Shown: positions 6,035-41,688 of the stretch, piece by piece
Position numbering within the stretch: the stretch's first letter is position 1
Layout: every line of letters begins with the position of its first letter
NCBI GenBank assembly: GCA_934454405.1
Contig: CAKSFN010000004.1
Coordinates: 84,854-148,853, forward strand
Length of the DNA stretch: 64,000 nt
Origin: an uncultured Eubacteriales bacterium
GTDB lineage: Bacteria; Bacillota; Clostridia; Oscillospirales; UBA644
Reading direction: 5' to 3'
Notes under the pieces: model-generated
What the model saw: the letters and a program-made list of their open reading frames with translations, nothing else
The model's database searches: none
Told to the model about the DNA's origin: nothing
Translations under genes and position numbers: made by a program

Positions 6035-6091
6035 CACGGGGAGGTTGCGCATACATTTTATGCGCAACCTCCTTTACGAAAGGAGAAACTC

Positions 6092-11293: not shown

Positions 11294-11887
11294 GTGAACG
11301 GAATCAAGCTGAAAATATCAAAACCAAAGGATAAGCTTTCCGCAGGTTCAAGCAAGCTGTTCGGCAATCCCGATGTGTGGGACGGCTTTGAATGGCCGTA
11401 TATCGAAGAAAACGGCGAAAAGTATGACTTAACCTTTATGTGTCAGATAGACTGTGCAAAGGCAGAAGGCTTTGACGAAAGCGGATTGCTTCCGAAAACT
11501 GGAATACTTTATTTCTTTTACGACCTTGATACAATGCCCGAAGCACCGGACGAAAAATCGGCACGGGTTCTTTGGTACAACGGCGAATTGTCCGCCCTGC
11601 ATGAAATGATACTGACAGATGAGGACGGCAACAGTCTGGCGTTTTCCGAGCAGAGAATCAATTTTGATGTAGCAGATGCGGATGAAAAATCATCTTCTCT
11701 TCTTCTCGGAGATATGACGCAAAGCTGTGATTTTATAAAGGATTATCTGCCGCTTTTGCGTATCGGCTCGCTTGAAACGGAGGATGCGGAGATCCGCTTT
11801 AAGGGTAACGGGGCGCTGTGCTTTTATATTGAAAAAGAAAAACTTGTAGCGTGCAACTTTTCCGAAGTGAAAGCGGCACAGATATAA
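11294..11887 (+). CDS. DUF1963 (YwqG-like) family protein
   Basis: GTG start after GAGGTGG. LPKTGILYFFYD and the C-terminal GNGALCFYIEKEKL...F match the DUF1963 signature as I remember it. Confidence 0.65.
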   Translation: MNGIKLKISKPKDKLSAGSSKLFGNPDVWDGFEWPYIEENGEKYDLTFMCQIDCAKAEGFDESGLLPKTGILYFFYDLDTMPEAPDEKSARVLWYNGELSALHEMILTDEDGNSLAFSEQRINFDVADADEKSSSLLLGDMTQSCDFIKDYLPLLRIGSLETEDAEIRFKGNGALCFYIEKEKLVACNFSEVKAAQI

Positions 11888-11904
11888 CAGGGAGGAACTT
11901 TGCC

Positions 11905-18752: not shown

Positions 18753-18754
18753 AT

Positions 18755-18778
18755 GTCGCTGCTGCGGCGACCAAAATA
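18755..18778 (+). repeat. Conserved stem-loop motif, copy 2: GTCGCT-GCTGC-GGCGAC-CAAAATA
   Basis: Read directly, in the 69-nt gap between ORFs 18237-18752 and 18822-20459. The T6:G12 pair is a G-U wobble on + strand RNA. A TATAAT lies at 18783-18788. Confidence 0.75.
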
Positions 18779-18821
18779 TTCTTATAATACGCTATCATTG
18801 TGTTGTAAAGGAGGCGAGCGC

Positions 18822-21339: not shown

Positions 21340-22635
21340 ATGGAACGGTATTTTGCAAAAGGCAGCAGGATCCCGCTGAAAAACGGGCAGTCGGCAGAGG
21401 TGATTGCAAAACTCGGCGAGGGCGGGCAAGGCACGGTATACCGTGTGCGTATCGGCGGAAAAGAATATGCGCTGAAATGGTATCATAAAGGCACCTTGCA
21501 GAATCCCCGCCGCTTTTATCAGAATCTTGAAAACAATATTCGGCAGGGTGCGCCCTCACCCGCCTTTCTGTGGCCGGAATTTCTGACAAAGGAAAGGGAC
21601 GGCAGCTTTGGCTATGTCATGAAGCTGCGCCCGTCAAATTACAGGGAGTTTTCGGATTTCCTGCTGGCAAAGGTGCATTTTTCCTCTCTGTCGGCGGCGG
21701 CAGGTGCGGCGCTGAATATCACCAACGGCTTTCGGGAGCTGCACCGGAAAGGCTTTTCCTATCAGGATCTGAACGACGGAAACTTCTTTCTTGATCCGAC
21801 GACCGGCGAGGCGCTCATCTGCGACAACGACAATGTGGCGCCCTACGGAGAGAGCCTCGGCATTGCCGGGAAAGCACGGTATATGGCGCCGGAGGTGGTG
21901 CGGAATATCAAGCGTCCGGATATCATGAGCGACCGGTTTTCTCTGGCGGTTGTGCTGTTCCGCCTTTTGTTTCTCGATCACCCGCTGGAGGGGAAGCGTG
22001 TGGTGGAGCACCCCTGCCTGACCGAGGAATTGGAGCTGAAATTTTACGGCAAAGCACCGATTTTTATATATGATAAAACGGACGATTCAAACCGCCCGGT
22101 GCACGGTATACACGCAAATGCCCTGCGCTTTTGGCCGGTGTATCCGAAATTCATTCGTGAGCAGTTCCTAAAAGCATTTTCCAAGGACGCCATGAGCGGA
22201 AAGGCGCTCCGCCCCACCGATAACGATTGGCAGATCGTCTTTACGCAGCTTCGTGACTGCATTGTCAAATGTCCCTGCGGCGGAGAAACATTTCTCGATT
22301 TTGAGGGCGACAGCCTGTGCATAAATTGCGGCCTTAAAATTCCGAAACCGCCTGTGTTATCGTCGCAGAATCGCTATAAGGTTGCCCTGTTCCCCGGAAT
22401 AAAGCTCTACCGCTGTCACACCGACCGGGACAGCGATGATTTTAAGAAAATTGTCGGCGAGGTTATACGCAATCCTAAAAATCCTGCCATATGGGGGCTT
22501 CGCAATCTCAGCGATGAGGCTTGGCAGGCCGAAACCAAGGACGGCAATGTAAAAACAATCGGCAAAAACGAGGTACTGGTCGTAACAAAAGCAAAACAGA
22601 TTCATTTCCCGAACTGTATCGGGACCATCGAATAA
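21340..22635 (+). CDS. Ser/Thr protein kinase with a C-terminal zinc ribbon and FHA-like domain (TerY-P kinase-like)
   Basis: Gly loop GEGGQGTVY, Lys in YALKW, catalytic loop SYQDLNDGNFF, CDNDN (DFG-equivalent) and RYMAPEV. These are followed by CPCGG...CINCG and a beta-rich tail (GLRNLSDEAWQAETKDGNVKTIGKNEVLVV). Confidence 0.8.
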   Translation: MERYFAKGSRIPLKNGQSAEVIAKLGEGGQGTVYRVRIGGKEYALKWYHKGTLQNPRRFYQNLENNIRQGAPSPAFLWPEFLTKERDGSFGYVMKLRPSNYREFSDFLLAKVHFSSLSAAAGAALNITNGFRELHRKGFSYQDLNDGNFFLDPTTGEALICDNDNVAPYGESLGIAGKARYMAPEVVRNIKRPDIMSDRFSLAVVLFRLLFLDHPLEGKRVVEHPCLTEELELKFYGKAPIFIYDKTDDSNRPVHGIHANALRFWPVYPKFIREQFLKAFSKDAMSGKALRPTDNDWQIVFTQLRDCIVKCPCGGETFLDFEGDSLCINCGLKIPKPPVLSSQNRYKVALFPGIKLYRCHTDRDSDDFKKIVGEVIRNPKNPAIWGLRNLSDEAWQAETKDGNVKTIGKNEVLVVTKAKQIHFPNCIGTIE

Positions 22636-26861: not shown

Positions 26862-27279
26862 AATAGCCTCCGCCCGTTCTTTGAAAACCGAATAGCACAG
26901 CGCATTCTTTACCTTCCTTCTGCCGTCGGCGAGAGCCGATGAGCCACACGACCTTTTGAGTCGGACGGTGCGGCGCATCCGCACCGAAGGCCATAAAAAG
27001 CAGAAGCAATAATGATACTTGCGTCCAGTCACAGGCCGAGCGTTGAAGCGGTACGAACAAAGAGCCGTAAGCCGTCGCAGCCAATGAGGGCGCCTCGCAG
27101 AGATCCTGGGAGTGGTGGGATTCCAATGAGGTCAAATGCATGACCGGAGGATGCGTTCCCTTGTCCGGGGTGTCGTGGACAAATACGGACAGAAAAAAGA
27201 ACGATTGATACAAAGACAATACAAGGCGGTCATTTGCCCAAAAGCACACGGCCGCCTTTTACTTAATACGGAGGCTAAT

Positions 27280-27793: not shown

Positions 27794-27912
27794 AATCTTA
27801 ATTCTCAAGTTTTTGCGAAAAACCGCTGGAAGTATTCGAACTATTGTGGTATGGTGTGTCGTGCCAAAAGGCGAATAACAGCAAGGCGACCCCTTGCGGA
27901 AAGGAGAAAGAC

Positions 27913-29457
27913 ATGAACATTACTGAAATCACAAGCACAAAGAAGCAGACAGCCGAACGGCTTCGGTTAGCCCCGTACTGCCGGGTGTCGAGTGACTCTA
28001 CCGACCAGCTCCACTCCTTCGCCGCACAGATCCGCTACTACAGCGACTATGCCAAGAAGCATCCCGAATATCAGCTTGTCGACATTTATGCCGATGAGGG
28101 CATCACGGGAACCGAGATGAAAAAGCGGGACGAGCTGAATCGGCTGATAGCCGACTGCAGGAAAGGTAAGGTCGACCGCATCATCGTCAAGTCGGTTTCC
28201 CGATTGGCACGGAACACCGAGGAGCTGCTCGTGCTGCTGCGGATGTGCAAAGAGATCGGCGTAAGCGTGTATTTCGAGGAACAGGGCATCGACACCGAAA
28301 AACTGAATATGGAGATGATCGTAACATTCCCCGGTATGGCCGCACAGCAAGAAAGTGTGAACATATCGGGGAATTTGCGTTGGAGCTATCAAAAGCGGAT
28401 GCAGTCCGGTGACTTCAACTGCACCTGTCCGGCTTACGGCTTCGACCTCAAAGACGGGCAAATGACCGTCAACGAAACGGAGGCGACGGTCATACGGCGC
28501 ATATTCGATCTATACCTCCAAGGATACGGTACGCTTGCCATTGCGAAAATGCTGAATGAGGACGGCATACCGCGGAAACACGGCTACGAAAAATGGCTGC
28601 CGAGTTCAATCAACTATGTATTGAACAACGAACGCTATATGGGAGATGCGCTCCTGCAGAAAAGCTACACCACCGAAACACTGCCGTTTCGGAAAATGAA
28701 AAACGACGGACGGCTGCCGCAATACTATGTAGAGAACAGCAATCCTGCCATCGTCAGCCGAGAAACCTTTCAGGCGGCGCAGAACCTGCTGTGCTCACGG
28801 AAAACGGAAAGATGCAAAAGAAAGTCCTATCCGCTGACCGGAAAGCTGCGCTGTCCCGAATGCGGCAGAGCCTTCCGGCATCAGGTGGTAAACGGCAAGG
28901 CGCATTGGATATGCTCCTGCCGCTCGTCCGGTGCAACCGACTGCCAGCACCGCCATGTGCGTGAGGATATCGTATACGGGATATTCACCGATATGGTTAT
29001 CAAGCTGAAAACCTACCGAGGCGAACTGCTCGGTACGCTGATTCACCAAATGGAAACCATGCAGGACCGCACAAGCCGCAATCAGGAACGCATACGGCAG
29101 ATAGACAGAGAAATCGCCGACCTCGGTGCAAAGAACCATATCATTGCAAGGTTGCACACAAGCGGCGCTATGAACGCCGCCGATTACGCCATGCAGACTT
29201 CGGAGATCGGCAATCGCCTCACCGAGCTGCGCATCGAACGGCGGCAAAAGCTCACCGAGGATGAGAACGACCAACTGCTCGCCACCCTCAAAGACTTGAA
29301 CGGCATCCTCGATGAATACGAGCCGACCGTCGAGTTTGACAACGGGCTGTTTGACGAAATCGTCGAGAGCATCACGGTGGACAGCAGCGAACAACTGACC
29401 TTCAAGCTCATCGGCGGCATTGCACTGACCGAGCAAATCCCCAAGAAAGGACGGTGA
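27913..29457 (+). CDS. Large serine recombinase 1 (resolvase catalytic domain, recombinase domain, zinc ribbon, coiled coil)
   Basis: ATG at 27913 after AAGGAGAAAG. Catalytic LAPYCRVSSDSTDQ with the Ser nucleophile, SRLARN, recombinase domain, CPECGRAF...C zinc ribbon. Confidence 0.9.
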   Translation: MNITEITSTKKQTAERLRLAPYCRVSSDSTDQLHSFAAQIRYYSDYAKKHPEYQLVDIYADEGITGTEMKKRDELNRLIADCRKGKVDRIIVKSVSRLARNTEELLVLLRMCKEIGVSVYFEEQGIDTEKLNMEMIVTFPGMAAQQESVNISGNLRWSYQKRMQSGDFNCTCPAYGFDLKDGQMTVNETEATVIRRIFDLYLQGYGTLAIAKMLNEDGIPRKHGYEKWLPSSINYVLNNERYMGDALLQKSYTTETLPFRKMKNDGRLPQYYVENSNPAIVSRETFQAAQNLLCSRKTERCKRKSYPLTGKLRCPECGRAFRHQVVNGKAHWICSCRSSGATDCQHRHVREDIVYGIFTDMVIKLKTYRGELLGTLIHQMETMQDRTSRNQERIRQIDREIADLGAKNHIIARLHTSGAMNAADYAMQTSEIGNRLTELRIERRQKLTEDENDQLLATLKDLNGILDEYEPTVEFDNGLFDEIVESITVDSSEQLTFKLIGGIALTEQIPKKGR

Positions 29458-29464
29458 AACCCGA

Positions 29465-30433
29465 ATGAAAAACAGAATCCTGCCTTACGGCTACTGCTGT
29501 AAAGACGGCGTTATCGTCATAGAGCCACAGGAGAGCAAAGTGCTGAAACAGATCTTTGCCGCCTACCTTGACGGCTCCTCTATGCTGACCATAGCCGAGC
29601 AGCTGAACAGAGAGAAAATCGAATACAGGGACGGCGTTACCGACTGGAACAAGGGGCGGCTCAAGCATCTCATTGACAACACAAAATATCTCGGCACAGA
29701 GGTGTATCCGCCGATCATCGATCAAGCAACCTATGAGAAAACACAGAAAACAAAGCATGGGCGCAACACTCAAAGGGATACGGACAAAACACAAGACATA
29801 TTCAAACTGACCATCCCCGTCCGATGCCCAAGCTGCGGTGACCGAATGCGCCGCCGACATGACAGCCGATGCAAATGCCAAGAGCGTTGGACTTGTGAGA
29901 ACACGACCTGCCGTCTGCGGATCGAGATATCCGATGCCGAATTGCTGACCGCACTTGCCGACCTTCTCGGCACGGTAACCGCCGACAGCATCACACTGCC
30001 TGCCGAAGCGCCCTACGAACCGAGCGCCGAGGTAACACGGCTGAATAACGAGATCAGCCGTATGCTTGACGCAGCAGAAATCGACAAAGCTGTATTGCGA
30101 AGCAAAATGACGGAGTGCCTCGCCCGGAAATATAAAGAACTCGGCAACGGGTGCTGTGCCGTACAAAGGCTGAAAGCCGAACTTGGCAGTACGGCAGACA
30201 TCGCCGAGCGGCTGAACCGCACGGTCAGCGAAATACGCCTGTACACCGACAAAACGGCAGACATCATACTGCTGAACGGACAGATCATACGAAAGGAGCA
30301 AGGTCATGCAACAAACAACGGTCGCCCCTCAGAGAGTGGTGCGGATAATCGAACCGACCATATCGGTCAGAGAAAGCGTGAAAAGCCATTACCGAGTCCT
30401 GCGGGTGGCGGCATACTGCCGCGTTTCCACTAA
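29465..30433 (+). CDS. Recombinase-domain protein lacking the N-terminal serine catalytic domain
   Basis: Starts directly in the recombinase domain (LPYGYCCKDGVIVIEPQESKVLKQIFAAYLDG), has CPSCGDRM...C and a coiled coil, and has no R-V-S motif. Its 3' end overlaps the next gene by 128 nt out of frame. Confidence 0.7.
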   Translation: MKNRILPYGYCCKDGVIVIEPQESKVLKQIFAAYLDGSSMLTIAEQLNREKIEYRDGVTDWNKGRLKHLIDNTKYLGTEVYPPIIDQATYEKTQKTKHGRNTQRDTDKTQDIFKLTIPVRCPSCGDRMRRRHDSRCKCQERWTCENTTCRLRIEISDAELLTALADLLGTVTADSITLPAEAPYEPSAEVTRLNNEISRMLDAAEIDKAVLRSKMTECLARKYKELGNGCCAVQRLKAELGSTADIAERLNRTVSEIRLYTDKTADIILLNGQIIRKEQGHATNNGRPSESGADNRTDHIGQRKREKPLPSPAGGGILPRFH

Positions 30434-31943
30434 GCAGGAGGAACAGCTCAATAGCTACGAAAATCAGGTGCAGCACTATACTGAACGCATCAATTCCGAA
30501 AACGGATGGACGCTTGAAGGTATCTACGCCGACAAGGGCATCTCCGGCACAAGCGTAAAGAACCGAGATGAATTCAACCGCATGATCCGCCGATGCAAGC
30601 AAGGGAAAATCGACATGATCATCACGAAATCCATCGCCCGGTTTGCGAGGAACACCGTCGACTGCTTGAAATATGTCCGACTGCTCAATGACCTCGGTGT
30701 CGATGTGTACTTCGAGGAGCAGGGCATCCACAGCAATCAGCCCGGCGCCGAGTTTTACATTACGATCTACGGCAGCATCGCGCAAAGCGAATCGGAAAAT
30801 ATCAGCGCCAACATTAAATGGGGCAAGGCGCAGGCCGCCCGTGAAGGCAAGGTGGTATTCAGATACAAGAACTTCCTCGGCTACCGCAAGGGCGAGGACG
30901 GACAACCCGAAATCGTCCCCGAAGAAGCCGAAACGATCCGCCTTATATATGACCGCTTCCTCGCAGGCGACAGCTTAAAAGGAATTGCCAAACTACTTGA
31001 AGAAAAGGGCATCAAAAGCCCAACGGGAAAAGCAGAATGGCAGTTTTCCACGATACAGTCCATTCTCTCCAACGAGAGGTACAAAGGCGATGCCATCATC
31101 AATAAGACCTACATCACCGACTGCATCAGCAAAAAGGTCAGAGTCAACAACGGCGAACGCCCGAAATACTATGTAGAAAACAGCCACCCTGCCATTATCG
31201 ACTCGGCTACCTTCGGCAGGGTTCAGGAGGAGCTCGCGCGGCGCTCCGGCAAACGCAAGATCAGCCGAAAAGCCAAGACCGAACAAGGCAAATACTCAAG
31301 CAAATACGCTCTGACAGAACTACTCGTCTGCGGTGAATGCAAGTCCGCCTACCGCCGATGCACATGGACGGCAAACGGTAAAAAGAAAATCGTGTGGCGA
31401 TGCATCAACCGCATTGAATACGCCAAGAAATACTGTCATAACTCACCCTCCGTAGAGGAAAGCATACTGCAACGGGCTGTGATGGCGGCGATCATGGAAA
31501 CCGCCAACCAAAATGCCGAGGTATTGCGAACACTGAAGCTGCACATCGGCATGGGCTTGGCGGGAGAAAAGAGCGAGGATAAGAGCATCGACCTACAGAT
31601 ACGGATCGCCGAAATCGACGCAGAATTCAAAAAAATGCTCGACCGAGTGTCCACCGACACCATCGAAGCCTTTGACGAGGAAACTGCAACTCGGCTCATG
31701 AACGAAAAAAGCCGCCTGCAACAGCAGCTCGACAGCATAGCCGACGCTGAGCAACGGCGTGAAAACGCAAAATCCCGACTCGATGACATCTACATGATAC
31801 TCGACGGCATAAAGAACCATCCGATGGAATACGATGACCGAATCGTCCGCCAACTGCTCGAATGTGTAGTGGTGGACTCAAAAGAGCAGATTACCGTAAT
31901 ATTCAAAGGCGGACTTAAATCGGTGCAGCCGCTGACCGAATGA
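30306..31943 (+). CDS. Large serine recombinase 2
   Basis: ATG lies 9 nt after AAGGAG. VAAYCRVSTKQEEQ catalytic Ser, ARFARN, recombinase domain, CGECKSAY...C zinc ribbon, C-terminal coiled coil. Confidence 0.9.
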   Translation: MQQTTVAPQRVVRIIEPTISVRESVKSHYRVLRVAAYCRVSTKQEEQLNSYENQVQHYTERINSENGWTLEGIYADKGISGTSVKNRDEFNRMIRRCKQGKIDMIITKSIARFARNTVDCLKYVRLLNDLGVDVYFEEQGIHSNQPGAEFYITIYGSIAQSESENISANIKWGKAQAAREGKVVFRYKNFLGYRKGEDGQPEIVPEEAETIRLIYDRFLAGDSLKGIAKLLEEKGIKSPTGKAEWQFSTIQSILSNERYKGDAIINKTYITDCISKKVRVNNGERPKYYVENSHPAIIDSATFGRVQEELARRSGKRKISRKAKTEQGKYSSKYALTELLVCGECKSAYRRCTWTANGKKKIVWRCINRIEYAKKYCHNSPSVEESILQRAVMAAIMETANQNAEVLRTLKLHIGMGLAGEKSEDKSIDLQIRIAEIDAEFKKMLDRVSTDTIEAFDEETATRLMNEKSRLQQQLDSIADAEQRRENAKSRLDDIYMILDGIKNHPMEYDDRIVRQLLECVVVDSKEQITVIFKGGLKSVQPLTE

Positions 31944-32104: not shown

Positions 32105-32206
32105 CCTCGGTGACTTGTCATGAACGCGCCTATGGAACGCGCACGGGCTCCGCCGGAAATCCTTTCGGTTGCAAATATAAGAAAACAGCTTGAAAGGATG
32201 ATAAAT

Positions 32207-32563
32207 ATGAAATACGAAATTACCTACAAAGAGAAAAACGGTCTGCTCTACCCCGACTTCCTTCTGCCGGAGCAAGCACGCTACCCAATCGGCAAATACG
32301 GAAGTTTACGCCTTGCATTTATAAAGGAGCATCGGAAAGGTACTTACACCACAGTTTTGACGCAGTGTCGATTGAATGCGTATCTTCATGACATTGACAT
32401 TGCGGCGAAAGAACAGGTGCGGTTGATCACCGCTCAGCTTGCCCAATCCCGTGGCATTGATGAAAAGCTGAAAGTTACCGACCCGCTCGAATGGGTGGTG
32501 CAGATGAATTCCTGCAAGACCACTGCTGAGGAAATCGTCATGAGTGAGATCATCTACCAATAA
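32207..32563 (+). CDS. tnpV: TnpV family protein (Tn4451-type accessory protein)
   Basis: ATG at 32207. ITYKEKNGLLYPDFLLPEQARYPIGKYGSLRLAFIKEHRKGTYTTVLTQCRLNAYLHDID matches the TnpV pattern as I remember it. Confidence 0.75.
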   Translation: MKYEITYKEKNGLLYPDFLLPEQARYPIGKYGSLRLAFIKEHRKGTYTTVLTQCRLNAYLHDIDIAAKEQVRLITAQLAQSRGIDEKLKVTDPLEWVVQMNSCKTTAEEIVMSEIIYQ

Positions 32564-33245: not shown

Positions 33246-33274
33246 TTGACAAATCGTGTGTGTTATGCTATAAT
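33246..33274 (+). promoter_or_regulatory. Consensus sigma-70 promoter TTGACA-N17-TATAAT (with TGC extended -10) for the HTH-M-R operon
   Basis: Hexamers at 33246-33251 and 33269-33274, 35 nt upstream of the ATG at 33309. Confidence 0.65.
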
Positions 33275-33308
33275 GATATTATAATCTTTCGTGATGGAGA
33301 AATTCACT

Positions 33309-33512
33309 ATGCCTGTGAGCTATAATAAGCTTTGGAAGTTGCTTATTGATAAAAAAATGACTCGCACTGATTTGAAAGAAAGGTCTGGAGTCAGCTTCAA
33401 TATTATTGCCAAGATGGGAAAAAACGAATTTGTCTCTATGGAAAGTCTGCATAAAATTTGCTTGACACTTAAATGTGGAATTGAAGAGATTATGGAGTTT
33501 ACAGACTTATGA
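33309..33512 (+). CDS. XRE/Cro-type HTH protein, likely controller (C-protein-like) of the R-M operon
   Basis: ATG lies 9 nt after GGAGA. Paralogous to ORF 9495-9728. Its stop overlaps the methyltransferase start (ATGA). Confidence 0.7.
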   Translation: MPVSYNKLWKLLIDKKMTRTDLKERSGVSFNIIAKMGKNEFVSMESLHKICLTLKCGIEEIMEFTDL

Positions 33513-34993
33513 GTATGATTGATTATGCATTTCAAACCACAGCAAAATACATCGATCGTATGCCAAAATCTTTGCGCAAAAAGTATGGTCAGTTTTTTAC
33601 CAGTCCAGAAACAGCAGCGTTTATGGCAGGATTATTTACAATCCCTCATCAAAATGTCATATCTGTTCTTGATCCAGGTGCTGGGTCTGGTATTCTGTCG
33701 GTTGCTTTAATTGAAAGATTACAGAATGTGTCTGATGTTAGTAGAATAGAAGTGGTTTGTTATGAAAATGATCCCAATGTCTTGGAATTGCTGCAAGCAA
33801 ACCTCGATTTGGCGTGTAAATATTCCAATAAGACAGTATCATATCAAATTATTACAGATAATTATATTTTAAGCCAAATGTCTGATTATAATTATTTGCT
33901 TGATGCCAGTCCAAATCCGAAAAAATTTGATCTTGTAATTGCTAATCCTCCATATATGAAGATTGCCAAAGATGCGCCGGAAGCCTTGGCGATGCCTGAT
34001 GTATGCTATGGTGCACCAAATCTATATTTCTTGTTCGTATCTATGAGTTTGTTTAATTTGAATGATTTGGGTGAAATGGTCTACATTATCCCTCGCTCAT
34101 GGACATCAGGTGTTTACTTCAAGCAATTCCGCAAACATCTCTTTAAAGAGGGTGTATTGGAACATATCCATTTATTTGTTAGCCGAGATAAGGTGTTTGA
34201 GAAAGAAAGTGTCCTGCAAGAAACGATTATAATAAAAGTTAAAAAGACTGTTGCCAAGACAAACAGCATTACAATTTCTACCACTCAAAGTAACAGCGAT
34301 TTTTCAAATAGAACAGTGTTTGAGGCTCCTTATGATACCGTTGTCAATGGTAAAGATTGTTACGTCTATCTGGTAACAAATAAGGATGAGGCTGACATAC
34401 TAAATACTTTGAATCGCCTAAGCAATACACTTCCAAGTATTGGCTTACGGATGAAAACTGGATTAACTGTGGATTTTAGAAACCGTGAAGCGCTGCGAGA
34501 TAATGCAGAAGAAGATGCAGTACCTCTTTTCTATTCTCAGCACATTCAAAATGGAAAAGTCGTATTCCCTGTAGGGAAAGAACACGAGTACATTGTAACA
34601 GGGCAACGTGGACTATTACAAGACAACACCAATTATTTGTTTGTGAAGCGCTTTACAGCAAAAGAAGAACACCGCCGCCTTCAGTGTGGTGTGTACTTGG
34701 CCAGAAAGCATCCTGAATATGCGGAGATTAGCACACAGAATAAAATCAATTTTATCAGCGGACTCCGTGAGTTATCAGAGTGTGTTGTTTATGGACTCTA
34801 TGTGCTATTCAATTCTACACTGTATGACAGCTATTATCGCATCTTGAACGGATCTACACAGGTGAACTCCACTGAAATCAATTCCATGCCAGTTCCACCT
34901 ATGAATACGATTGAAGCGATGGGGAAGGAATTGATTCGCGCCAGAGATATGTCGGAATCGACTTGTGACAATATTTTGAGGAGCTATATATGA
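33509..34993 (+). CDS. N6-adenine DNA methyltransferase, Eco57I/PstI-type (gamma class)
   Basis: YGQFFTSPETAAFMAG, AdoMet motif VLDPGAGSGILS and catalytic VIANPPYMKI, in that order. Length is close to M.PstI/M.BsuBI-type enzymes. Confidence 0.85.
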   Translation: MSMIDYAFQTTAKYIDRMPKSLRKKYGQFFTSPETAAFMAGLFTIPHQNVISVLDPGAGSGILSVALIERLQNVSDVSRIEVVCYENDPNVLELLQANLDLACKYSNKTVSYQIITDNYILSQMSDYNYLLDASPNPKKFDLVIANPPYMKIAKDAPEALAMPDVCYGAPNLYFLFVSMSLFNLNDLGEMVYIIPRSWTSGVYFKQFRKHLFKEGVLEHIHLFVSRDKVFEKESVLQETIIIKVKKTVAKTNSITISTTQSNSDFSNRTVFEAPYDTVVNGKDCYVYLVTNKDEADILNTLNRLSNTLPSIGLRMKTGLTVDFRNREALRDNAEEDAVPLFYSQHIQNGKVVFPVGKEHEYIVTGQRGLLQDNTNYLFVKRFTAKEEHRRLQCGVYLARKHPEYAEISTQNKINFISGLRELSECVVYGLYVLFNSTLYDSYYRILNGSTQVNSTEINSMPVPPMNTIEAMGKELIRARDMSESTCDNILRSYI

Positions 34994-35907
34994 GTAAATT
35001 AGAGGAAGCAAAAGAAATTCTAAGTTCGTTGAAAGTTCCATCAAAACAGCAAAACGGTATGTGCTGCTGTGTATTGCTGGCAATGGCTAATCTGACAGAA
35101 GAAGAGTCATGGGGCTCTGCCACTAATAATTGGATTCGAATTCACGATGTCATTGCGTTCGCAAACGGCAATTACGGAATGACCTATGCAGAAAATAGCC
35201 GCGAAACCTTCCGCAAGCAAGCCATGCACCACTTTAGAAATGCAGCGTTCATTGAGGATAACGGAAAGGCAACCAACAGTCCAAACTATCAGTATCGCTT
35301 AACGGATGAGATGCTGCACTTGATTCAGAGCTTTGGCACAGCAGACTGGGAGAAAAGTTTGGCGCGTTTTATGGAAAATCATGACTCACTTGTTGACCTC
35401 TATGCCTCTAAACGGACAATGAGAAAAATGCCTGTAAAAATCAATGGCGAAGACTTCACATTCTCGCCGGGCAAGCACAACCAACTGCAAAAAGCAATTA
35501 TCGAGGAATTTGCGTCCCGCTTCGCGCCTAACTCCGAGTGCCTGTATGTTGGGGATACCACAGAGAAAGACTTGGTTAAAAATGTGGACAAGCTCCGTGC
35601 TTTGGGCTTTGAAATAACGTTGCACGACAAGATGCCCGATGTTGTCCTCTACGCTGAAGACAAGGATTGGCTATACTTTATCGAATCGGTTACATCCGTT
35701 GGACCGATGGAGCCTAAGCGTATCAAAGAAATTGAGGAAATGACGACTGGCGTTACAGCCGGGAAAATATATGTTACAGCATTTCTGGACTTCAAGACAT
35801 TCAAGCAGTTTTCAGAATCTCTTGCGTGGGAAACAGAGGTTTGGATTGCCGATATGCCAGATCACATGATCCATTTGAACGGAGATAAGTTTTTAGGGCC
35901 AAGATGA
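34990..35907 (+). CDS. Type II restriction endonuclease, BsuBI/PstI-like
   Basis: ATGA overlap with the methyltransferase. Size is ~305 aa. MPDVVLYAEDKDWLYFIESVTSVGP looks like a PD...E-x-V/K nuclease core. The family call is from memory of BsuBI/PstI proteins and is not verified. Confidence 0.65.
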   Translation: MSKLEEAKEILSSLKVPSKQQNGMCCCVLLAMANLTEEESWGSATNNWIRIHDVIAFANGNYGMTYAENSRETFRKQAMHHFRNAAFIEDNGKATNSPNYQYRLTDEMLHLIQSFGTADWEKSLARFMENHDSLVDLYASKRTMRKMPVKINGEDFTFSPGKHNQLQKAIIEEFASRFAPNSECLYVGDTTEKDLVKNVDKLRALGFEITLHDKMPDVVLYAEDKDWLYFIESVTSVGPMEPKRIKEIEEMTTGVTAGKIYVTAFLDFKTFKQFSESLAWETEVWIADMPDHMIHLNGDKFLGPR

Positions 35908-35971
35908 ATAATATGACAGTTATTTATTGCAAAACGCCCACTAAGTTATCGATAAAAAGGAAGAGATTAAA

Positions 35972-36694
35972 ATGACAAATTACGAAATCCTACAGAAAAT
36001 TTGTAAAAGAGCAAAAGAAAACATAGATTTGCTTAATAATTCAGGAAAACTTGATGCACTTAGTAAATGTATTGCTTTTGCTGATGATCTCCATAAGTGG
36101 GTATCTTATTGTGATAATCTGAAAGACTATATTTTAGTCAAAGAAGCCAAAACTGAATGTATAAACTCAATTTATATGTGTGCTCAAGGATTTTATAAGG
36201 AAGCAATAACAACTCTGCGCCAGTTTTTTGAACATATGTTGTTTGCCATATTGCTATCAACCAATGATTATAAGTATAGACTTTGGCAAACTGGACGGTA
36301 TGATATGTCATGGTCGCAAATTGTAGATGATCAAAATGGTATATTTGGGAAACAGTTTATTAGCGCGTATGCAGAGAACTTAGATGAGGTACGAAGTGTA
36401 GAATTTCTTACAATTGCAAAAAATGTGTACAGGGAATGCTCGGAGTATGTACATGGTAATTTTGAGAAGCTAAGTTTACTGCCTGATAATCTCCTATTCG
36501 ACGGAAATGCCTTTGACCAGTATGTAGAATATTTTTCGAATATTCAATATCTGATTTGCGCGGCCTTGTTTATTAGATTTAGGCATATATTTAATAAGTG
36601 CGAAACAATTTCTGCACTTGAACCAATTATTTCAGATAACTTGGGAACATTATCAGAAATTCAACAATTGCTTTCGCCTGAAGGAGTGAACTAA
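35972..36694 (+). CDS. Uncharacterised all-alpha protein (240 aa) with HEPN/DUF4145-like R..H motifs
   Basis: AGGAAGAG RBS. Motifs GFYKEAITTLRQFFEHML (Rx4H, R83-H88) and NVYRECSEYVHGN (Rx6H, R154-H161). Same strand and composition as the R-M genes. Confidence 0.6.
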   Translation: MTNYEILQKICKRAKENIDLLNNSGKLDALSKCIAFADDLHKWVSYCDNLKDYILVKEAKTECINSIYMCAQGFYKEAITTLRQFFEHMLFAILLSTNDYKYRLWQTGRYDMSWSQIVDDQNGIFGKQFISAYAENLDEVRSVEFLTIAKNVYRECSEYVHGNFEKLSLLPDNLLFDGNAFDQYVEYFSNIQYLICAALFIRFRHIFNKCETISALEPIISDNLGTLSEIQQLLSPEGVN

Positions 36695-36695
36695 C

Positions 36696-38294
36696 ATGAA
36701 CGATTTGGTTTTTAGAACCGAAGAATTAACTAACCATCAAATAGCAGAATTGTATGTAGCATCCGATTATGAGCAAAGCATTATTGATAAACTTAAAGCC
36801 CCCTCCCCGGTTTTGTTAATTGGAAGTAGAGGTGTTGGAAAATCATTTCTATTCAAAATGAGCGAAATTCAGATGCTTCAAGAATTCTCAGAGAAAAAAA
36901 TTTTGCCGGTGTTTTTAACTTTCAGAAAAGCTTCGCTATTGAAAACATCAAATCCTGAACAATTTCAGAGCTGGATGCTCAGTCGAATTTGTTCCGAAGT
37001 TCTTAGAGCGTTAAAAAAAATAGGAAAACTATCCCCTATATCTGGTGGATTATCATTATTGGCAGGTGAAGGTGAGACCGAATCGAACAAAATTGACGAT
37101 ATTGCAAAAGCCTTTGAAGAGTCTTGGAAAAAACCGGGAGAACTTATCGATGTTACCAAAATTCCGTCTTTAGATGTGTTCCTAAATACAGTAGAAGACT
37201 TATGTGATGAACTGGATATTTCTCGTATCGTTTTATTTATCGATGAAGCCGCACATGTTTTCTTACCACAGCAGCAACGAGAGTTCTTTACATTATTTAG
37301 AGATTTGAGGTCGCCCTATATCAAATGTAATGCAGCAGTATATCCTGGTGTAACCGTTTATGGAGAAACATTTGAGCCAATACATGATGCTGTCAAAATA
37401 TCCTTAGTTAGAAATGTGAATGATTCAGACTATGTGTCTATCATGAAGCAGATGGTATTAAAGCAGATTCATGATAGCAGTTTAGCCACTAATCTTTCAA
37501 GACATGGAGAGAATTTCACTTTGCTTGCGTATGCGGCGTCAGGAAATCCCCGGTATCTTTTAACAAGCGTTTCTATGGCCGAGAAAATCGATGCAAAGTC
37601 TGTCAATCAAGTCTTTAGGGATTACTATCGAGAAAAACTTTGGGCAGAGCACACTAAATTGGCAGACAGATATCCCGGGTATAAGGATTTCATTTCATGG
37701 GGACGTGATTTTCTTGAAACTACTGTACTCCCAGAAATAAAGAGAAAAAACGATGATTTCCTTGAAAATAGTAATGGCAAAGGAACAACAGCATATTTCT
37801 GGATTCACAACAATGCTCCTCAAGAGGTTAAAGAGGCTCTGAGAATACTTGAGTATTCTGGTCTGATTTATGAAGATGCTGCTGGAATACGTGCAACCCG
37901 CAGTGAGATTGGAACACGGTACATGGTAAATCTCGGGTGTTTACTGGCATCTGAATCAACTCCGTCAGCAACAGGAATGAAAATAATCAAAGCATTAGAT
38001 ATTAGAAGAATGAGCGAATATGGTGCGAATTATCCTGTATATCAAGGGGTTCAGGGTAAGATCGTTGGAAGCGAAACAGATGCGCTTAAGGGACAGTTGG
38101 ATAAATCAATAGATTTGCTTGAGCTAACAGATTGGCAAAAACAGAAGATGCATGAGATTTCGATTAATACCATTGGAGATTTAATTTCCGCACCAGAAGA
38201 AAAATTAAAACAAGCAAAATATATAGCAAATGTGCGAGCCAGAACAATAAAAAATGCTGGAATTGCAGCTGTATGTGAGTATTTGCTGGGATAA
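36696..38294 (+). CDS. ORC/Cdc6-like AAA+ ATPase with a winged helix and a C-terminal RNAP-alpha-CTD-like helix-hairpin-helix
   Basis: Starts 1 nt after the upstream stop. Walker A GSRGVGKS (res 43-50), Walker B VLFIDEA, GNPRYLL sensor-2-like patch, wHTH-like ALRILEYSGLIYEDAAGIR, and a C-terminal INTIGDLISAPEEKLKQAKYIANVRARTIKNAG. Confidence 0.7.
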   Translation: MNDLVFRTEELTNHQIAELYVASDYEQSIIDKLKAPSPVLLIGSRGVGKSFLFKMSEIQMLQEFSEKKILPVFLTFRKASLLKTSNPEQFQSWMLSRICSEVLRALKKIGKLSPISGGLSLLAGEGETESNKIDDIAKAFEESWKKPGELIDVTKIPSLDVFLNTVEDLCDELDISRIVLFIDEAAHVFLPQQQREFFTLFRDLRSPYIKCNAAVYPGVTVYGETFEPIHDAVKISLVRNVNDSDYVSIMKQMVLKQIHDSSLATNLSRHGENFTLLAYAASGNPRYLLTSVSMAEKIDAKSVNQVFRDYYREKLWAEHTKLADRYPGYKDFISWGRDFLETTVLPEIKRKNDDFLENSNGKGTTAYFWIHNNAPQEVKEALRILEYSGLIYEDAAGIRATRSEIGTRYMVNLGCLLASESTPSATGMKIIKALDIRRMSEYGANYPVYQGVQGKIVGSETDALKGQLDKSIDLLELTDWQKQKMHEISINTIGDLISAPEEKLKQAKYIANVRARTIKNAGIAAVCEYLLG

Positions 38295-38666
38295 TTATGT
38301 CTCCCGATAGGCAAGCATATATATTGCTATAATTTATTACTAAATCGCCTATAGAAATGTAGGAATCAATTATTGATAACATCCCCTGATAGCCTTTTGA
38401 TAGCATAAAATCGATCCCCCATCGGATTGAAATAATTGGTATATAATTAAGCCAAATGAAATCAAACGACCTATACAAAAAAGTGTAGATTGCGTTTCTC
38501 TCGGCGAATTATACTCGTTGCGCTTGGTATGCAGGATGCCCTCCGGGTAGTCGACGCACCAGTCCAAAACAAAGCGGGTCAGGTACTTTTGAATAATGCA
38601 AACTGCGCCGATTTGAGTTTCAAACCTGAAAGTGCCGACGGGGTACAAGGGGTGTCCCCTTAAAGA

Positions 38667-38706
38667 GAATCCGGGTGTGAGCACCATGGAATGAGCACCC
38701 GGATTC
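38667..38706. repeat. Hairpin GAATCCGGGTG-N18-CACCCGGATTC
   Basis: 11-bp perfect arms, read directly, in the non-coding junction. Confidence 0.7.
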
Positions 38707-38896
38707 AGTGCTTGCTAAGAATTGCAGACAGACAAAGTCGTTCCGGAGACCGTACACATCGGAGCGGCTTTTCTTTTTTTCAAAGTTTCAATCGGTAATT
38801 ACACCTTGCTCCTGTTTGTATTCGGTTTCTTGCGGATGCCCGTGCATGCATACGGACACTTTTTCTTCCGTCTTTCACTCTCAGCAAGCACTGAAT
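38703..38896. repeat. Pair of 14-bp perfect inverted repeats (ATTCAGTGCTTGCT / AGCAAGCACTGAAT) flanking 166 nt
   Basis: Arms at 38703-38716 and 38883-38896, read directly. Confidence 0.7.
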
Positions 38897-38897
38897 G

Positions 38898-38927
38898 ATA
38901 CCTCCCACCCGGATGCCTCCCACCGGG
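38898..38927. repeat. Tandem 15-nt direct repeat ATACCTCCCACCCGG / ATGCCTCCCACCGGG
   Basis: 13 of 15 positions identical. A third, degenerate CCTCCCC follows at ~38957. Confidence 0.6.
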
Positions 38928-39050
38928 TTTTCGGTACATTCGCTTGTGAGGGGATACCTCCCCTAATACCCCTCGGACAAAGCAATGCCACTTGATTTTT
39001 TCTGCCTGCGTACCGACGACAAATAAGTTGAAAATCTTTCCTTCTTCCTC

Positions 39051-39079
39051 TTGACAAGTTATGCGAGTGATGCTATAAT
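39051..39079 (+). promoter_or_regulatory. Consensus sigma-70 promoter TTGACA-N17-TATAAT (TGC extended -10) for the LexA-like gene
   Basis: Hexamers at 39051-39056 and 39074-39079. The spacer resembles that of the promoter at 33246. Confidence 0.65.
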
Positions 39080-39084
39080 AATAT

Positions 39085-39102
39085 GCGGTACTATTGTACC
39101 GC
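39085..39102. promoter_or_regulatory. Operator-like palindrome GCGGTAC-TATT-GTACCGC just downstream of the -10 element
   Basis: 7-bp perfect arms positioned over the expected transcription start. Plausible autoregulation site for the adjacent repressor. Confidence 0.4.
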
Positions 39103-39121
39103 TATATAGAAAGAGGTACCT

Positions 39122-39733
39122 ATGAAAGCATTGGACGCAGAACGCTTTACGAAAATTCGGGCGTTCATCGATGAATATTATCTTGACCATCATAAGTCCC
39201 CGACCGTGCGCGACATTGCCGCAGGCACGGGAATATCCAAGACTGCAGTGCAACGCTATCTGACCGATATGAAGGCGCACGGCGAGATCGAATACAACGG
39301 CAGGCGCAGCATTGAAACCGACCTTTCCCGTGTCATGACCGATATCACACCTGCCGCCCGGTATGACAGTACCGTGTCGTGCGGTTTGCCGACCGAAGTA
39401 AATGTGGAACCCGCAGAGGTGCTGCCGCTACCCAAATCGCTCGTCGGTAACGGAACATTCTTCATTCTCACCGCCAAGGGTGACTCAATGACAGGCATCG
39501 GGGTAGATGACGGCGACCTTGTGATCGTTCGTGAGCAGAACACCTGCAGGGACGGAGACTATGCCGTCGTACTTGTGGACGGGCGGGAAACTTTGCTCAA
39601 AACCGTCACCTATCTGCCCGACAAGCAGGCTTATCTGTTGCACGCCGAGAATCCGGATTACCCCGAACGGGTGGAACGCAATGTGACCATTCAGGGTGTG
39701 GCAATCAAGGTCATCAAGGAACTGAAACGATAG
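39122..39733 (+). CDS. LexA/CI-like repressor (N-terminal wHTH plus S24 peptidase domain)
   Basis: VRDIAAGTGISKTAVQRYLTDM is the HTH. GDSM carries the Ser nucleophile and ETLLKTV the Lys, in S24 spacing. Confidence 0.8.
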   Translation: MKALDAERFTKIRAFIDEYYLDHHKSPTVRDIAAGTGISKTAVQRYLTDMKAHGEIEYNGRRSIETDLSRVMTDITPAARYDSTVSCGLPTEVNVEPAEVLPLPKSLVGNGTFFILTAKGDSMTGIGVDDGDLVIVREQNTCRDGDYAVVLVDGRETLLKTVTYLPDKQAYLLHAENPDYPERVERNVTIQGVAIKVIKELKR

Positions 39734-39745
39734 GAGGAAGAAACA

Positions 39746-40069
39746 TTGACATTAAAAGAAGCATGGGAATGTATCGTCGAAACGATGAACAACAATAAAA
39801 CCACACAGGTCGTGATCGTCAGCAAGGGGGATCCTGATTATGACAAATGTCTGTCACTTGATTGGCTTGTCGAAAAATTCAAAAACGCAATCAACAATAC
39901 CCGTGGCTGTTTCGGTGTTCCGAAAGAGGAAATCGACAATCTGGCAGATGCGTTGCTTCCGGCGATGATCGAGTTCTTTCAAAGCGAGGAGGGACAGCGG
40001 GAATTTGCCGCTTGGCTTGAAAAGCGGGAGAAAGAACAAACAGTAAAGAAAAAGGATGGTGACACATGA
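39746..40069 (+). CDS. Hypothetical protein (107 aa)
   Basis: TTG start 7 nt after AGGAGG. Its stop overlaps the recombinase ATG (ATGA). Confidence 0.5.
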   Translation: MTLKEAWECIVETMNNNKTTQVVIVSKGDPDYDKCLSLDWLVEKFKNAINNTRGCFGVPKEEIDNLADALLPAMIEFFQSEEGQREFAAWLEKREKEQTVKKKDGDT

Positions 40070-41688
40070 TTGGCGTTATCTATGCACGGTATTCCTCCGA
40101 TAATCAGCGCGAGGAGTCCATTGAAGGTCAGCTTCGGGAGTGCCGTCAGTATGCGGACAGGAACGGTATCACTCTGCTTGATCCGTACATCGACCGTGCC
40201 TATTCTGCGAAAACGGATAATCGTCCGAGTTTCTTAAAAATGGTCAAGGACAGCGCGGCAAAGAAGTTTGACACGATCATTGTATGGAAGCTTGACCGCT
40301 TTGCCCGAAACCGTTATGACTCGGCACATTATAAATCTATCCTGCGCAAAAACGGCGTTCGTGTTGTTTCGGCAACCGAATCTATTTCAGAAGGTTCGGA
40401 AGGCATTCTGCTGGAATCTGTATTGGAAGGTATGGCGGAGTATTACTCGGCTGACCTTGCACAAAAAGTGATTCGGGGATTGACGGAAAACGCCCTGAAA
40501 TGCAAATACAACGGCGGTACCTTACCAATCGGATATGTTATCGATTCTGCACAATATTTTCAGATTGATCCTATCACCGCTCCTGCCGTATTGAATGCCT
40601 TTCGGCATTACGCCGCCGGAAAGTCCATGCGGGAAGTAACGGACGAATTGAATATTACCGGTATCCGAACAAAACGGAACGGAAAGATCAGTATCAACAG
40701 CGTCACAAGAATGCTCCACAATCGAAAGTATATCGGCGAATATTCTTACAGGGACACGGTTATTCCGGGCGGAATTCCCGCCATCGTTCCGAAAGAACTG
40801 TTTGATAAAGTACAGGAGCGTATGGCAAAAACAAAGAAAGCCCCTGCCCACCACAAAGCAGAAGATGAATATCTCCTGACGACGAAGATTTTCTGCGGTG
40901 AGTGTAAACGCATGATGACCGGAGAGAGCGGAACAAGTCACATGGGTAATGTACACCGTTACTACAAGTGCAACGGTGCCCGTAAGGGTGGGGACTGTCA
41001 CAAGAAAACGGTCAAAAAGGAATGGATTGAAAATATGGTTCTCTCCAAAATCCGCGAAGTCATTTTTGACGATGAACTGTTGAATGATGTTGCAGACCGA
41101 CTGATGGAACGTCTTCACGCAGAAAATACAAACCTCCCCATTCTCAGACGGCAACTGAAGGAGGTAGAAAAAGGCATTGATAATTTTATGAATGCCATTC
41201 AAATGGGCATTATCACGCCGTCCACCAAAGAGCGATTGAATGATCTGGAAACGCAGAAATCAGAGCTAACCGTACAGATCATGAAGGAAGAAATGTCAGT
41301 GCCGTCGCTGACAAAAGAGCAGATTCTTTTCTTTCTCACGAAATTCAGAGAACTCAATCCCAAACTTCTCGATCATCGCCGCAGGCTGATCGACAGCTTT
41401 GTCAACGCCGTTTATCTCTATGACGACAGATTGACAATCCTGTTCAACTGCAAGGACGGAAACAAGACTTACACTTTTGCGGAAATTGAAGCCGCACTAA
41501 AAGGTTCGGGTTTGTCTGCACTCGCTGCACCAAAAATCGACAAGCCGCACATGCTGCTTGTCGGTTTTATTCTCTGCCAACACGGAATCGGCAGGTCTCG
41601 CTGCGGCTCGGTCACGCTCCGGCTCTCTCGCTGCAAGCGGTCATACAGAAATACTGTACTTTACATCTATTGGCTGATGCATAGTTAA
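40066..41688 (+). CDS. Large serine recombinase (phage/island integrase type)
   Basis: IGVIYARYSSDNQREESIEGQ catalytic Ser motif, DRFARN, recombinase domain, CGECKRMM...YYKCNG zinc ribbon, coiled coil. The last ~50 aa look low-quality and contain a terminator-like hairpin (CGACAAGC-N10-GCTTGTCG). Confidence 0.9.
   Translation: MIGVIYARYSSDNQREESIEGQLRECRQYADRNGITLLDPYIDRAYSAKTDNRPSFLKMVKDSAAKKFDTIIVWKLDRFARNRYDSAHYKSILRKNGVRVVSATESISEGSEGILLESVLEGMAEYYSADLAQKVIRGLTENALKCKYNGGTLPIGYVIDSAQYFQIDPITAPAVLNAFRHYAAGKSMREVTDELNITGIRTKRNGKISINSVTRMLHNRKYIGEYSYRDTVIPGGIPAIVPKELFDKVQERMAKTKKAPAHHKAEDEYLLTTKIFCGECKRMMTGESGTSHMGNVHRYYKCNGARKGGDCHKKTVKKEWIENMVLSKIREVIFDDELLNDVADRLMERLHAENTNLPILRRQLKEVEKGIDNFMNAIQMGIITPSTKERLNDLETQKSELTVQIMKEEMSVPSLTKEQILFFLTKFRELNPKLLDHRRRLIDSFVNAVYLYDDRLTILFNCKDGNKTYTFAEIEAALKGSGLSALAAPKIDKPHMLLVGFILCQHGIGRSRCGSVTLRLSRCKRSYRNTVLYIYWLMHS

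Follow-up and report, generated by a model that had tools for sequence, protein, structure and literature searches.

A Conserved and Widely Distributed Gene Pair Encoding an ORC/Cdc6-Type ATPase and a Probably HEPN-Like Protein

Two Adjacent Genes in a Low-GC Island

We analyzed a stretch of 64,000 nt (hereafter the window) from the genome of an uncultured Eubacteriales bacterium (assembly GCA_934454405.1, contig CAKSFN010000004.1). It contains two consecutive genes on the forward strand, encoding proteins of 240 and 532 amino acids (aa), respectively. The TAA stop codon of the first gene, at 36692-36694, is separated by a single C from the ATG of the second at 36696. A Shine-Dalgarno sequence stands ahead of each start: AGGAAGAG at 35958-35965 for the 240-aa gene and GAAGGAG at 36680-36686 for the 532-aa gene. 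The open reading frame (ORF) of a restriction endonuclease ends at 35907, leaving a gap of 64 nt in which a consensus scan of the + strand found no terminator. The GC content is 0.34-0.43 across 33-38 kb and about 0.5 on either side. An earlier note on this DNA, made from the sequence alone, had described the two ORFs and their spacing, the uninterrupted gap, and an AT-rich composition common to the restriction-modification (R-M) genes and the pair; all of these coordinates and observations were confirmed. The note had proposed that the pair forms a defense module combining a nucleoside triphosphatase (NTPase) with a HEPN-like effector. The positions of the features discussed here are given in table 1.

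The 532-aa Protein, an ORC/Cdc6-Type ATPase

The Pfam family PF24389 (ORC-CDC6-like) matches aa 5-334 of the 532-aa protein with an E-value of 1e-16 (61.3 bits for a cut-off of 27) and is precomputed on nearly all of its listed homologues. A structural model built with AlphaFold2 from 23 homologues (pLDDT 85.1, pTM 0.83) displays an alternating strand-helix core. According to Foldseek, its best matches in the PDB are DNA-bound archaeal Orc1/Cdc6 proteins (2v1u_A, E-value 1.4e-6, and 2qby_B), aligned over 452-459 columns. Further matches are yeast ORC subunits, RdrA (8hr8_F, E-value 7.9e-5), RuvBL, clamp loaders, a plant NLR, TnsC (8fcu_Q), and domain III of DnaA; the Foldseek probability is 1.00 for Orc1/Cdc6, the ORC subunits, and RFC. 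By fold class, the 532-aa protein is an ORC/Cdc6-type AAA+ ATPase, as previously proposed.

The catalytic motifs of this ATPase are intact. Among 23 homologues sharing 52-89% identity, residues G43, S44, R45, G46, G48, and K49 of the Walker A motif are invariant, as are F181, D183, E184, A185, A186, and H187 in the Walker B strand and immediately after it. R239, G283, N284, P285, and R286 are also invariant, and N212 is kept in at least 90% of the homologues. From their position in the model and the known motifs of ORC/Cdc6 proteins, N212, R239, and R286 are candidates for sensor 1, the arginine finger, and sensor 2, respectively. The GNPR sequence resembles the GDAR-type sensor 2 of Orc1/Cdc6. 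The elements that the earlier note had picked out, namely, Walker A with K49, Walker B, GNPR, and a C-terminal segment beginning with LELTDWQ, were all found to be present and invariant or nearly so. In the model, a large helical insertion, partly of low confidence, lies between strand 69-75 and strand 177-183; it may correspond to the initiator-specific helical insert (ISM) that ORC/Cdc6 proteins carry after strand 2. A helical lid (helices at 246-358) is followed by a winged-helix-like unit and by a C-terminal helical domain. Residues 377-477 show a weak match to the ArsR family.

The end of the protein had been likened to the C-terminal domain (CTD) of the RNA polymerase alpha subunit, and the resemblance proved weak but consistent. 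The Pfam family RNA_pol_A_CTD (PF03118) matches the last 70 residues with an E-value of 0.0015 (18.6 bits, under the cut-off of 23.8) and is precomputed on seven homologues of the ATPase. In addition, a profile of the 23 homologues matches more than 40 distinct alpha-subunit CTDs of the PDB at the homologous position, with a best E-value of 0.002. At the level of sequence profiles, the resemblance of the tail to the alpha-CTD fold is credible. In the HMMER alignments, the arginine of the LTVRS/LSVRS segment of alpha-CTDs is aligned with a tryptophan (W480), and the GKKS loop is not kept, the aligned residues being A/N-V-R-A. We take this arginine and the GKKS loop to constitute the DNA-binding "265 determinant" (R265 in the Escherichia coli numbering). 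Because the equivalent of R265 is a tryptophan and the GKKS loop is lost, the resemblance does not imply that this tail binds DNA as alpha-CTDs do.

An All-Helical, Probably HEPN-Like Partner

The 240-aa protein matches no family above threshold in any of the libraries searched. Its sole Pfam match is to DUF5677 (PF18928), over aa 67-100, with an E-value of 8e-4 (19.9 bits for a cut-off of 27.1). We scored the conservation of the partner over 116 diverse homologues sharing 21-53% identity. Nine of these touch DUF5677 weakly, over one helix only (best E-value 2.7e-5, below the cut-off), and one matches the PADLOC profile CARF_HEPN at 7e-4. The resemblance to DUF4145 suggested previously was not recovered. 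A sequence profile of the family found no match in the PDB. By searching 1.84 billion cluster representatives exhaustively with HMMER, we identified 552 relatives at the 50% identity level, nearly all of them stand-alone proteins of 230-250 aa.

Over the 116 homologues, R83, E87, W105, S157, and H161 are invariant, and Y75, L82, S96, D111, W114, G123, S126, Y153, R154, G162, N163, and R202 are kept in at least 90%. The R-x6-H motif predicted within YRECSEYVHG thus corresponds to the conserved residues R154 and H161. The sequence LRQFFEH had been read as a second motif, of the R-x4-H type. R83 and E87 in this sequence are invariant, but its histidine, H88, is not conserved, which rules it out as a catalytic R-x4-H motif.

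The AlphaFold2 model of the partner is all-helical (pLDDT 90.4, pTM 0.89). Compared with Foldseek, it gave nothing at an E-value of 0.001 or lower in the PDB and no meaningful match among the viral structures of BFVD. The only high-probability PDB matches are HEPN domains, 2hsb (0.98), 1ufb (0.90), and 1wol (0.75), with target-normalised TM-scores of 0.50-0.59 and E-values of 0.4-0.9. Members of the HEPN superfamily are described as four-helix up-down bundles in which an insert separates helix 2 from helix 3, helix 2 bears a conserved acidic residue, and an Rx4-6H motif is present (PMC3710099). In the model, R83 and E87 are located in helix 75-95 (predicted helix 2); short helices and loops make up an insert at residues 96-139; helix 140-157 (predicted helix 3) ends with Y153-R154-E-C-S157, R154 being close to its end; and H161 lies in the following loop. 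This is the location published for the Rx4-6H motif. As the model fits the published layout point by point, the 240-aa protein is probably HEPN-like. Membership of the superfamily is not proven, because no profile or structural match is significant. Of the earlier proposal of an all-helical, HEPN-like partner, the helical fold and the agreement with the HEPN layout were upheld; the assignment itself rests on geometry and on nonsignificant structural matches.

All-helical bundles are prone to false structural analogies, and no HEPN family or structure is significantly matched. The 240-aa protein might accordingly be a nonenzymatic helical scaffold or sensor, and the output of the pair would be other than RNA cleavage, for example ATP-dependent DNA binding or occlusion by the ATPase. 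We consider this unlikely: the partner keeps five invariant and about twelve near-invariant residues at 21-53% identity, including an R...H pair and a glutamate placed as in the active sites of HEPN domains, and three HEPN structures are its only high-probability structural matches. A HEPN-like enzyme is the reading that we prefer for this protein.

The Pair in Other Genomes

We scanned one genome per species, for 185,579 species, with conserved peptides of the ATPase, the Walker B stretch VLFIDEAAH serving as search pattern. This led to 80 confirmed ATPase loci in other species, with full-length ATPase identities of 43-92%. They belong to numerous phyla and classes: Bacillota, Alpha-, Beta-, Gamma-, and Deltaproteobacteria, Bacteroidota, Actinomycetota, Cyanobacteriota, Acidobacteriota, Nitrospirota, and Planctomycetota. 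One is found in a metagenome-assembled genome of Methanosarcina. According to the family profile, 79 of the 80 loci encode a homologue of the 240-aa protein directly upstream and in the same orientation; the remaining locus is truncated by a contig end. The neighboring pair is therefore present in at least 79 species, bacteria plus one archaeon, and the question of a conserved pairing raised with the initial prediction is answered positively.

The two genes are tightly coupled. The distance from the stop of the partner to the start of the ATPase ranges from -8 to +26 nt in 74 of the 76 measurable loci, and 24 pairs overlap. Identity to the window copy is correlated between the two proteins (r = 0.92); the partner diverges faster than the ATPase, with a median identity of 31% versus 47%. 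All-against-all clustering of the neighboring ORFs revealed no third conserved gene: the next commonest cluster occurs in seven of the 80 loci, which rules out a third gene as a component of the system. Finally, the GC content of the pair is lower than that of its flanks by more than 3 points in 66 of 67 loci, the median difference being -12.8 points. Adjacency, tight spacing, co-divergence, the lack of a third gene, and the drop in GC content are characteristic of a two-gene module that is self-contained and horizontally transferred.

A Sister Clade with Another Partner

An ATPase of 574 aa encoded on a Limimaricola plasmid can be aligned with the family from end to end, its C-terminal helix-hairpin-helix (HhH) domain included (hhalign, 99.85%). 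An unrelated 274-aa protein is encoded after this ATPase and not before it. Such sister modules, all uncharacterized, were found in Alpha- and Gammaproteobacteria, in Limimaricola, Hoeflea, Rhodopseudomonas, and others. Like the pair of the window, they combine the same ATPase architecture with tight coupling, the two genes overlapping by 4 nt in Hoeflea phototrophica, and with a small partner carrying an R...H signature. They differ by their reversed gene order and by the family of the partner, which is 274-276 aa long. In this second partner family, an R-x4-H motif is invariant (R156 and H161 in its own numbering), six of 36 members show weak matches to the Pfam family HEPN_RiboL-PSP, and one member is named RiboL-PSP-HEPN domain protein in UniRef. 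The two partner families have no detectable homology with each other, their alignment by hhalign being nonsignificant.

At the sequence level, these data suggest a single ATPase chassis with interchangeable HEPN-type partners. The occurrence of alternative small partners, each with an R...H signature, fits the logic of a sensor with swappable effectors, the evidence for HEPN being weak for both partners.

Relation to the Local Restriction-Modification Operon

In the window, the pair follows three genes encoding a small helix-turn-helix (HTH) controller, a methyltransferase, and a PstI-like endonuclease. A perfect promoter of the sigma-70 type, TTGACA-17-TATAAT, was detected by consensus scan 5' of the HTH gene. 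The R-M genes and the pair are probably co-transcribed here from this promoter. The earlier note had associated the pair with the R-M operon. It could be an accessory of it, either a regulator or a second line, as PrrC is wired to EcoprrI: it follows the R-M genes in the same orientation, shares their low GC content, and is separated from them by 64 nt in which no terminator was found. The whole arrangement recurs in a metagenomic contig (L082), and HEPN genes often cluster with R-M operons (PMC3710099). However, no homologue of the local controller, methyltransferase, or endonuclease gene was found in any of the 80 loci of other species, and L082, which is near-identical, is the only other contig in which R-M genes and the pair were seen together. 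Moreover, in Ligaoa zhengdingensis NSJ-31 (L001), whose ATPase is 92% identical, the R-M genes are replaced directly upstream by a DUF2971 gene that matches the PADLOC candidate family PDC-S31. A functional tie to a PstI-like R-M system as a general rule is ruled out by the 80 loci, and a role as R-M accessory appears highly improbable to us. Because the 80 loci lack the R-M genes and L001 differs, we conclude that the pair works independently of this R-M system; a local synergy is possible. The autonomous module is the reading that we retain.

Two further observations were made at these loci. In L082 (214-5214), the partner is 94% identical and the pair is intact, and the methyltransferase and the endonuclease are each called as two fragments; this reflects either a decay of the R-M system with retention of the pair or an assembly error. 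In L001, the DUF2971/PDC-S31 gene (6243-7226) represents a swapping of neighbors at one site.

Mobile Elements around the Pair

Among the products encoded in the first 27 kb of the window are a MobL relaxase carrying fused Sel1 repeats, a type IV coupling protein, a MORN-repeat protein, a second Sel1-repeat protein, and a protein kinase. The same type of MobL-Sel1 relaxase flanks the pair in gut metagenome contigs (L083-L088). In the window, the pair is cargo on an element resembling integrative and conjugative elements (ICEs). On its two sides, the low-GC island formed by the R-M genes and the pair has large serine recombinase genes (four in all), TnpV, and a repressor resembling LexA; it lies between the two recombinase sets, just ahead of argC/argJ-like genes. 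Scans of the window for tRNAs, Rfam motifs, and repeats revealed no attachment-site-like repeats delimiting this island.

An Rfam pemK RNA motif (RF02913) is located at 27009-27129 on the + strand, about 700 nt upstream of the first of the three tandem serine recombinase genes (63.1 bits for a gathering score of 34.8). Downstream of the pair, a stretch of about 830 nt (38295-39121) is devoid of real-looking ORFs. Within it, the GC content returns to the host level, and a 30-nt inverted repeat, 80% complementary, is found at 38703-38732 and 38867-38896. This stretch may be a junction or a remnant of the inserted island.

In the other genomes, the neighbors of the pair differ in nearly every species. 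They include integrases, IS200 transposases, a type III restriction enzyme, YhcG-type nucleases, helicases, and members of several candidate families of PADLOC. In gut metagenome contigs, the pair lies within a Firmicute conjugative element, with a YhcG nuclease gene on one side of it and the MobL relaxase gene on the other. It directly follows a serine recombinase gene on a megaplasmid of C. butyricum. On plasmid p2 of Planktothrix agardhii (L090, 3438-10124), it is inserted between a gene of the PAPS-reductase family and a gene pair encoding a ResIII/DEAD helicase and a GHKL (HATPase_c_3) ATPase; this locus looks like a small defense cluster. A Serratia copy had no match by blastn in 5,426 E. 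coli genomes, and the window island had none in plasmids by megablast.

This association with mobile elements is open to two other interpretations. The pair could be a toxin-antitoxin or addiction module that stabilizes mobile elements, the 240-aa protein being the toxin and the ATPase its neutralizer or regulator, with phage defense as an incidental effect. The tightly coupled two-gene architecture, the carriage on ICEs beside recombinases, and the foreign base composition agree with this explanation, and HEPN proteins are common toxins (PMC3710099). However, a multidomain ATPase of 532 aa with invariant catalytic residues, a winged helix, and a HhH tail is far more complex than known antitoxins, and many loci are chromosomal, with no visible mobile element. 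An addiction role also overlaps with one in abortive infection instead of ruling it out. We grant it a minor chance.

Alternatively, the pair might carry out DNA transactions of mobile elements, the ATPase being a replication initiator or a target-selection or loader ATPase similar to TnsC, MuB, or IstB, and the small protein an adaptor. The structural matches of the ATPase to TnsC, domain III of DnaA, and clamp loaders point in this direction. So do the predicted winged helix and HhH domain, which suggest DNA binding, and the proximity of a conjugative-element relaxase in several loci. Yet no transposase, replicase, origin-like repeat, or other mobility gene is conserved with the pair, and its neighbors vary almost from species to species. 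In addition, the invariant R/E/S/H set of the partner looks catalytic and not adaptor-like, and the sister clade has a HEPN-like protein in place of this partner. We judge such a role quite improbable and favor a conflict module carried by mobile elements.

Table 1. Positions of the Features of the Pair, Its Surroundings in the Window, and the Sister Modules
Feature	Position	Strand	Basis or remark
Gene, 240-aa all-helical partner (predicted HEPN-like RNase effector)	35972-36694	+	ATG start; ORF and ribosome-binding site; AlphaFold2 model
Codons R83 to E87, predicted helix 2 (aa 75-95): invariant Arg and invariant acidic residue	36218-36232	+	Conservation
Codons Y153 to N163 (YRECSEYVHGN), R154-x6-H161 motif	36428-36460	+	Conservation
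Gene, 532-aa ORC/Cdc6-type ATPase	36696-38294	+	ATG start; Pfam PF24389; AlphaFold2 model; Foldseek
Walker A, G43-S50 (GSRGVGKS, K49)	36822-36845	+	Conservation
Walker B strand and next residues, V179-H187 (VLFIDEAAH; D183, E184)	37230-37256	+	Conservation
Region with putative sensor 1 (N212), putative arginine finger (R239), and putative sensor 2 (G283-N284-P285-R286)	37329-37553	+	Conservation and model position
Winged-helix-like domain, approximately aa 362-420 (with helix 376-388 and two strands, 391-399 and 405-411)	37779-37955	+	Model
Alpha-CTD-like tail of the 532-aa protein	38073-38291	+	Subthreshold Pfam RNA_pol_A_CTD; profile matches in the PDB
Promoter	33246-33274	+	Consensus scan; local context, outside the conserved module
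HTH controller gene, Cro/C1-type	33291-33512	+	Local context, outside the conserved module
N6-adenine methyltransferase gene, Eco57I/N6_Mtase-type	33509-34993	+	Local context, outside the conserved module
BsuBI/PstI-type endonuclease gene	34990-35907	+	Local context, outside the conserved module
ICE-like cargo and transfer genes of the window	3824-8961, 11851-14274, 18753-20459, 21340-22635		
Three consecutive large serine recombinase genes, then TnpV	27844-31943, 32120-32563		
LexA-like S24 repressor (own perfect promoter 39051-39079), 107-aa ORF, fourth large serine recombinase	39122-41688		
Sister two-gene modules	L089:4938-7493; L093:4277-6831		ATPase of 574-575 aa with an extra zinc ribbon, then protein of 274-276 aa

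Relatives among Known Systems

We searched PADLOC-DB 2.0, the antiphage models of NCBIfam 20.0 (2026), and PHROGs for a named system corresponding to the pair. The 240-aa partner has no hit to any named or candidate system in PADLOC 2.0. The ATPase shows weak matches at the level of the P-loop only (PDC-S01, 0.0035; mad8, 0.0058). Among the NCBIfam models, DS41_1_antiphage scores 25.9 bits for a cut-off of 370 and ATPase_Sll1717 scores 38 bits for a cut-off of 75. PHROGs gave nothing for the pair. Both proteins are labeled hypothetical in RefSeq, and no description of the pair was found in the full-text literature searched. The earlier note had been unable to place this combination among named defense systems, and nothing above threshold in these libraries contradicts it.

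The closest validated analogue in architecture is RADAR, a two-gene defense system in which a Cdc6-like AAA+ ATPase has as its partner an enzyme encoded by the second gene. The 532-aa protein finds one of its best structural matches in RdrA, which has itself been compared with Cdc6 and NLRs (PMC9994260). However, RdrB is an adenosine deaminase, whereas the predicted effector of the pair is a small helical HEPN-like protein. The ATPase of the pair is about 300 residues shorter than RdrA and has a winged helix and an alpha-CTD-like tail in place of the RdrA C-terminal domain. The pair has no sequence-level match to the RADAR models of PADLOC.

In the anticodon nucleases PrrC and RloC, an NTPase gates a HEPN-type ribonuclease (RNase), as we propose for the pair. 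These proteins classically adjoin R-M genes and serve as a second line of defense (see PMC3710099). They carry an ABC-class NTPase fused to the nuclease, whereas that of the pair is an AAA+ protein within the ORC/Cdc6 clade and is encoded by a separate gene; the R-M linkage of the pair, found in none of the 80 loci, is not conserved.

The BrxC/DUF499-type ATPases of BREX and BREX-related systems are defense proteins in which an ATPase of the ORC/Cdc6-STAND assemblage precedes a winged HTH. Some DUF499 ATPases have been described with a fused N-terminal HEPN, and PglW of type 2 BREX with a helical domain resembling the alpha-CTD (10.1101/2025.10.09.681413); aa 460-519 of the 532-aa protein show a weak match to PglW in PADLOC. 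The BrxC/DUF499 proteins have at least 1,200 residues and belong to multigene systems with PglZ and a methyltransferase, whereas the pair consists of two genes only. Clustering of the neighbors at the 80 loci revealed no BREX component beside it.

DUF5677 is the only family touched by the 240-aa protein, every match being below 27.1 bits and limited to one helix. A DUF5677 gene tried in Enterococcus was not among the protective genes, its membership in the 240-aa family not being shown (PMC12632615). In kind, the pair belongs with the known NTPase-plus-nuclease conflict systems, but it is not a member of RADAR, BREX, or PrrC/RloC, as it has no RADAR, BREX, or ABC-ATPase components. It is a real, conserved, widely distributed two-gene module that appears to be unnamed so far.

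A Possible Mode of Action

On balance, we favor the view that the pair is an autonomous, horizontally transferred conflict module that combines an NTPase switch with an RNase effector and acts most likely against phages or plasmids, by a mechanism of the abortive-infection type. The ATPase would act as a sensor and nucleotide-dependent switch binding nucleic acid or a foreign protein, and might oligomerize upon its trigger, as do its relatives ORC/Cdc6, STAND NTPases, and RdrA. The 240-aa protein would be a metal-independent RNase of the HEPN type, with a putative active site formed by R154, H161, S157, and E87/R83, which the ATPase would either restrain or activate. Cleavage of RNA would then stop the growth of the infected cell or the expression of the invader. 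We infer the RNase activity, the direction of control, and the trigger, just as the defense phenotype of the family is inferred from context.

Several observations weigh against this view. Some loci sit among ordinary housekeeping genes, and the proximity of defense genes was seen as individual neighbors. No phage record of INPHARED matches the ATPase (tblastn, 50,697 records), the pair is present in just two of 2.9 million IMG/VR contigs, and it is rare on plasmids (four records). Because it is near-absent from phages and rare on plasmids, the pair is not a typical defense cargo of prophages or plasmids. The HEPN assignment is statistically insecure: no structural match of the partner reaches an E-value of 0.001, no family of the Pfam HEPN clan matches it, its only family match is the weak one to DUF5677 described above, and the comparison of the 240-aa family with the partner family of the sister clade is not significant (hhalign, E-value 0.25). 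As the tail of the ATPase has a tryptophan instead of R265, DNA binding by this tail is not assured.

The tail could have another role. It might be a decoy of the RNA polymerase alpha-CTD, a bait for the factors with which phages or plasmids hijack transcription by docking on the host alpha-CTD or by modifying it. The binding of such factors would lead to ATP-dependent oligomerization of the ATPase and to release of the HEPN-like RNase. This idea is a long shot. If true, the pair would be a guard or decoy immune receptor watching for the takeover of host transcription, built on an ATPase of the replication-initiator type with interchangeable HEPN effectors.

If the conflict module that we favor does protect cells, it would be a widespread and compact two-gene immune system, present in at least 79 species. 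Its type of sensor, ORC/Cdc6, is nearer to replication initiators than are the STAND and ABC ATPases that dominate the known systems, and bears an unusual domain similar to the alpha-CTD of RNA polymerase. The sister clade, with its other HEPN-like partner, offers a natural experiment in effector swapping. Such a role would also provide a function for Pfam family PF24389 and for a 550-cluster family of proteins annotated as hypothetical. Through its carriage on conjugative elements of gut Firmicutes, the pair may shape the traffic of plasmids and phages in the microbiome.

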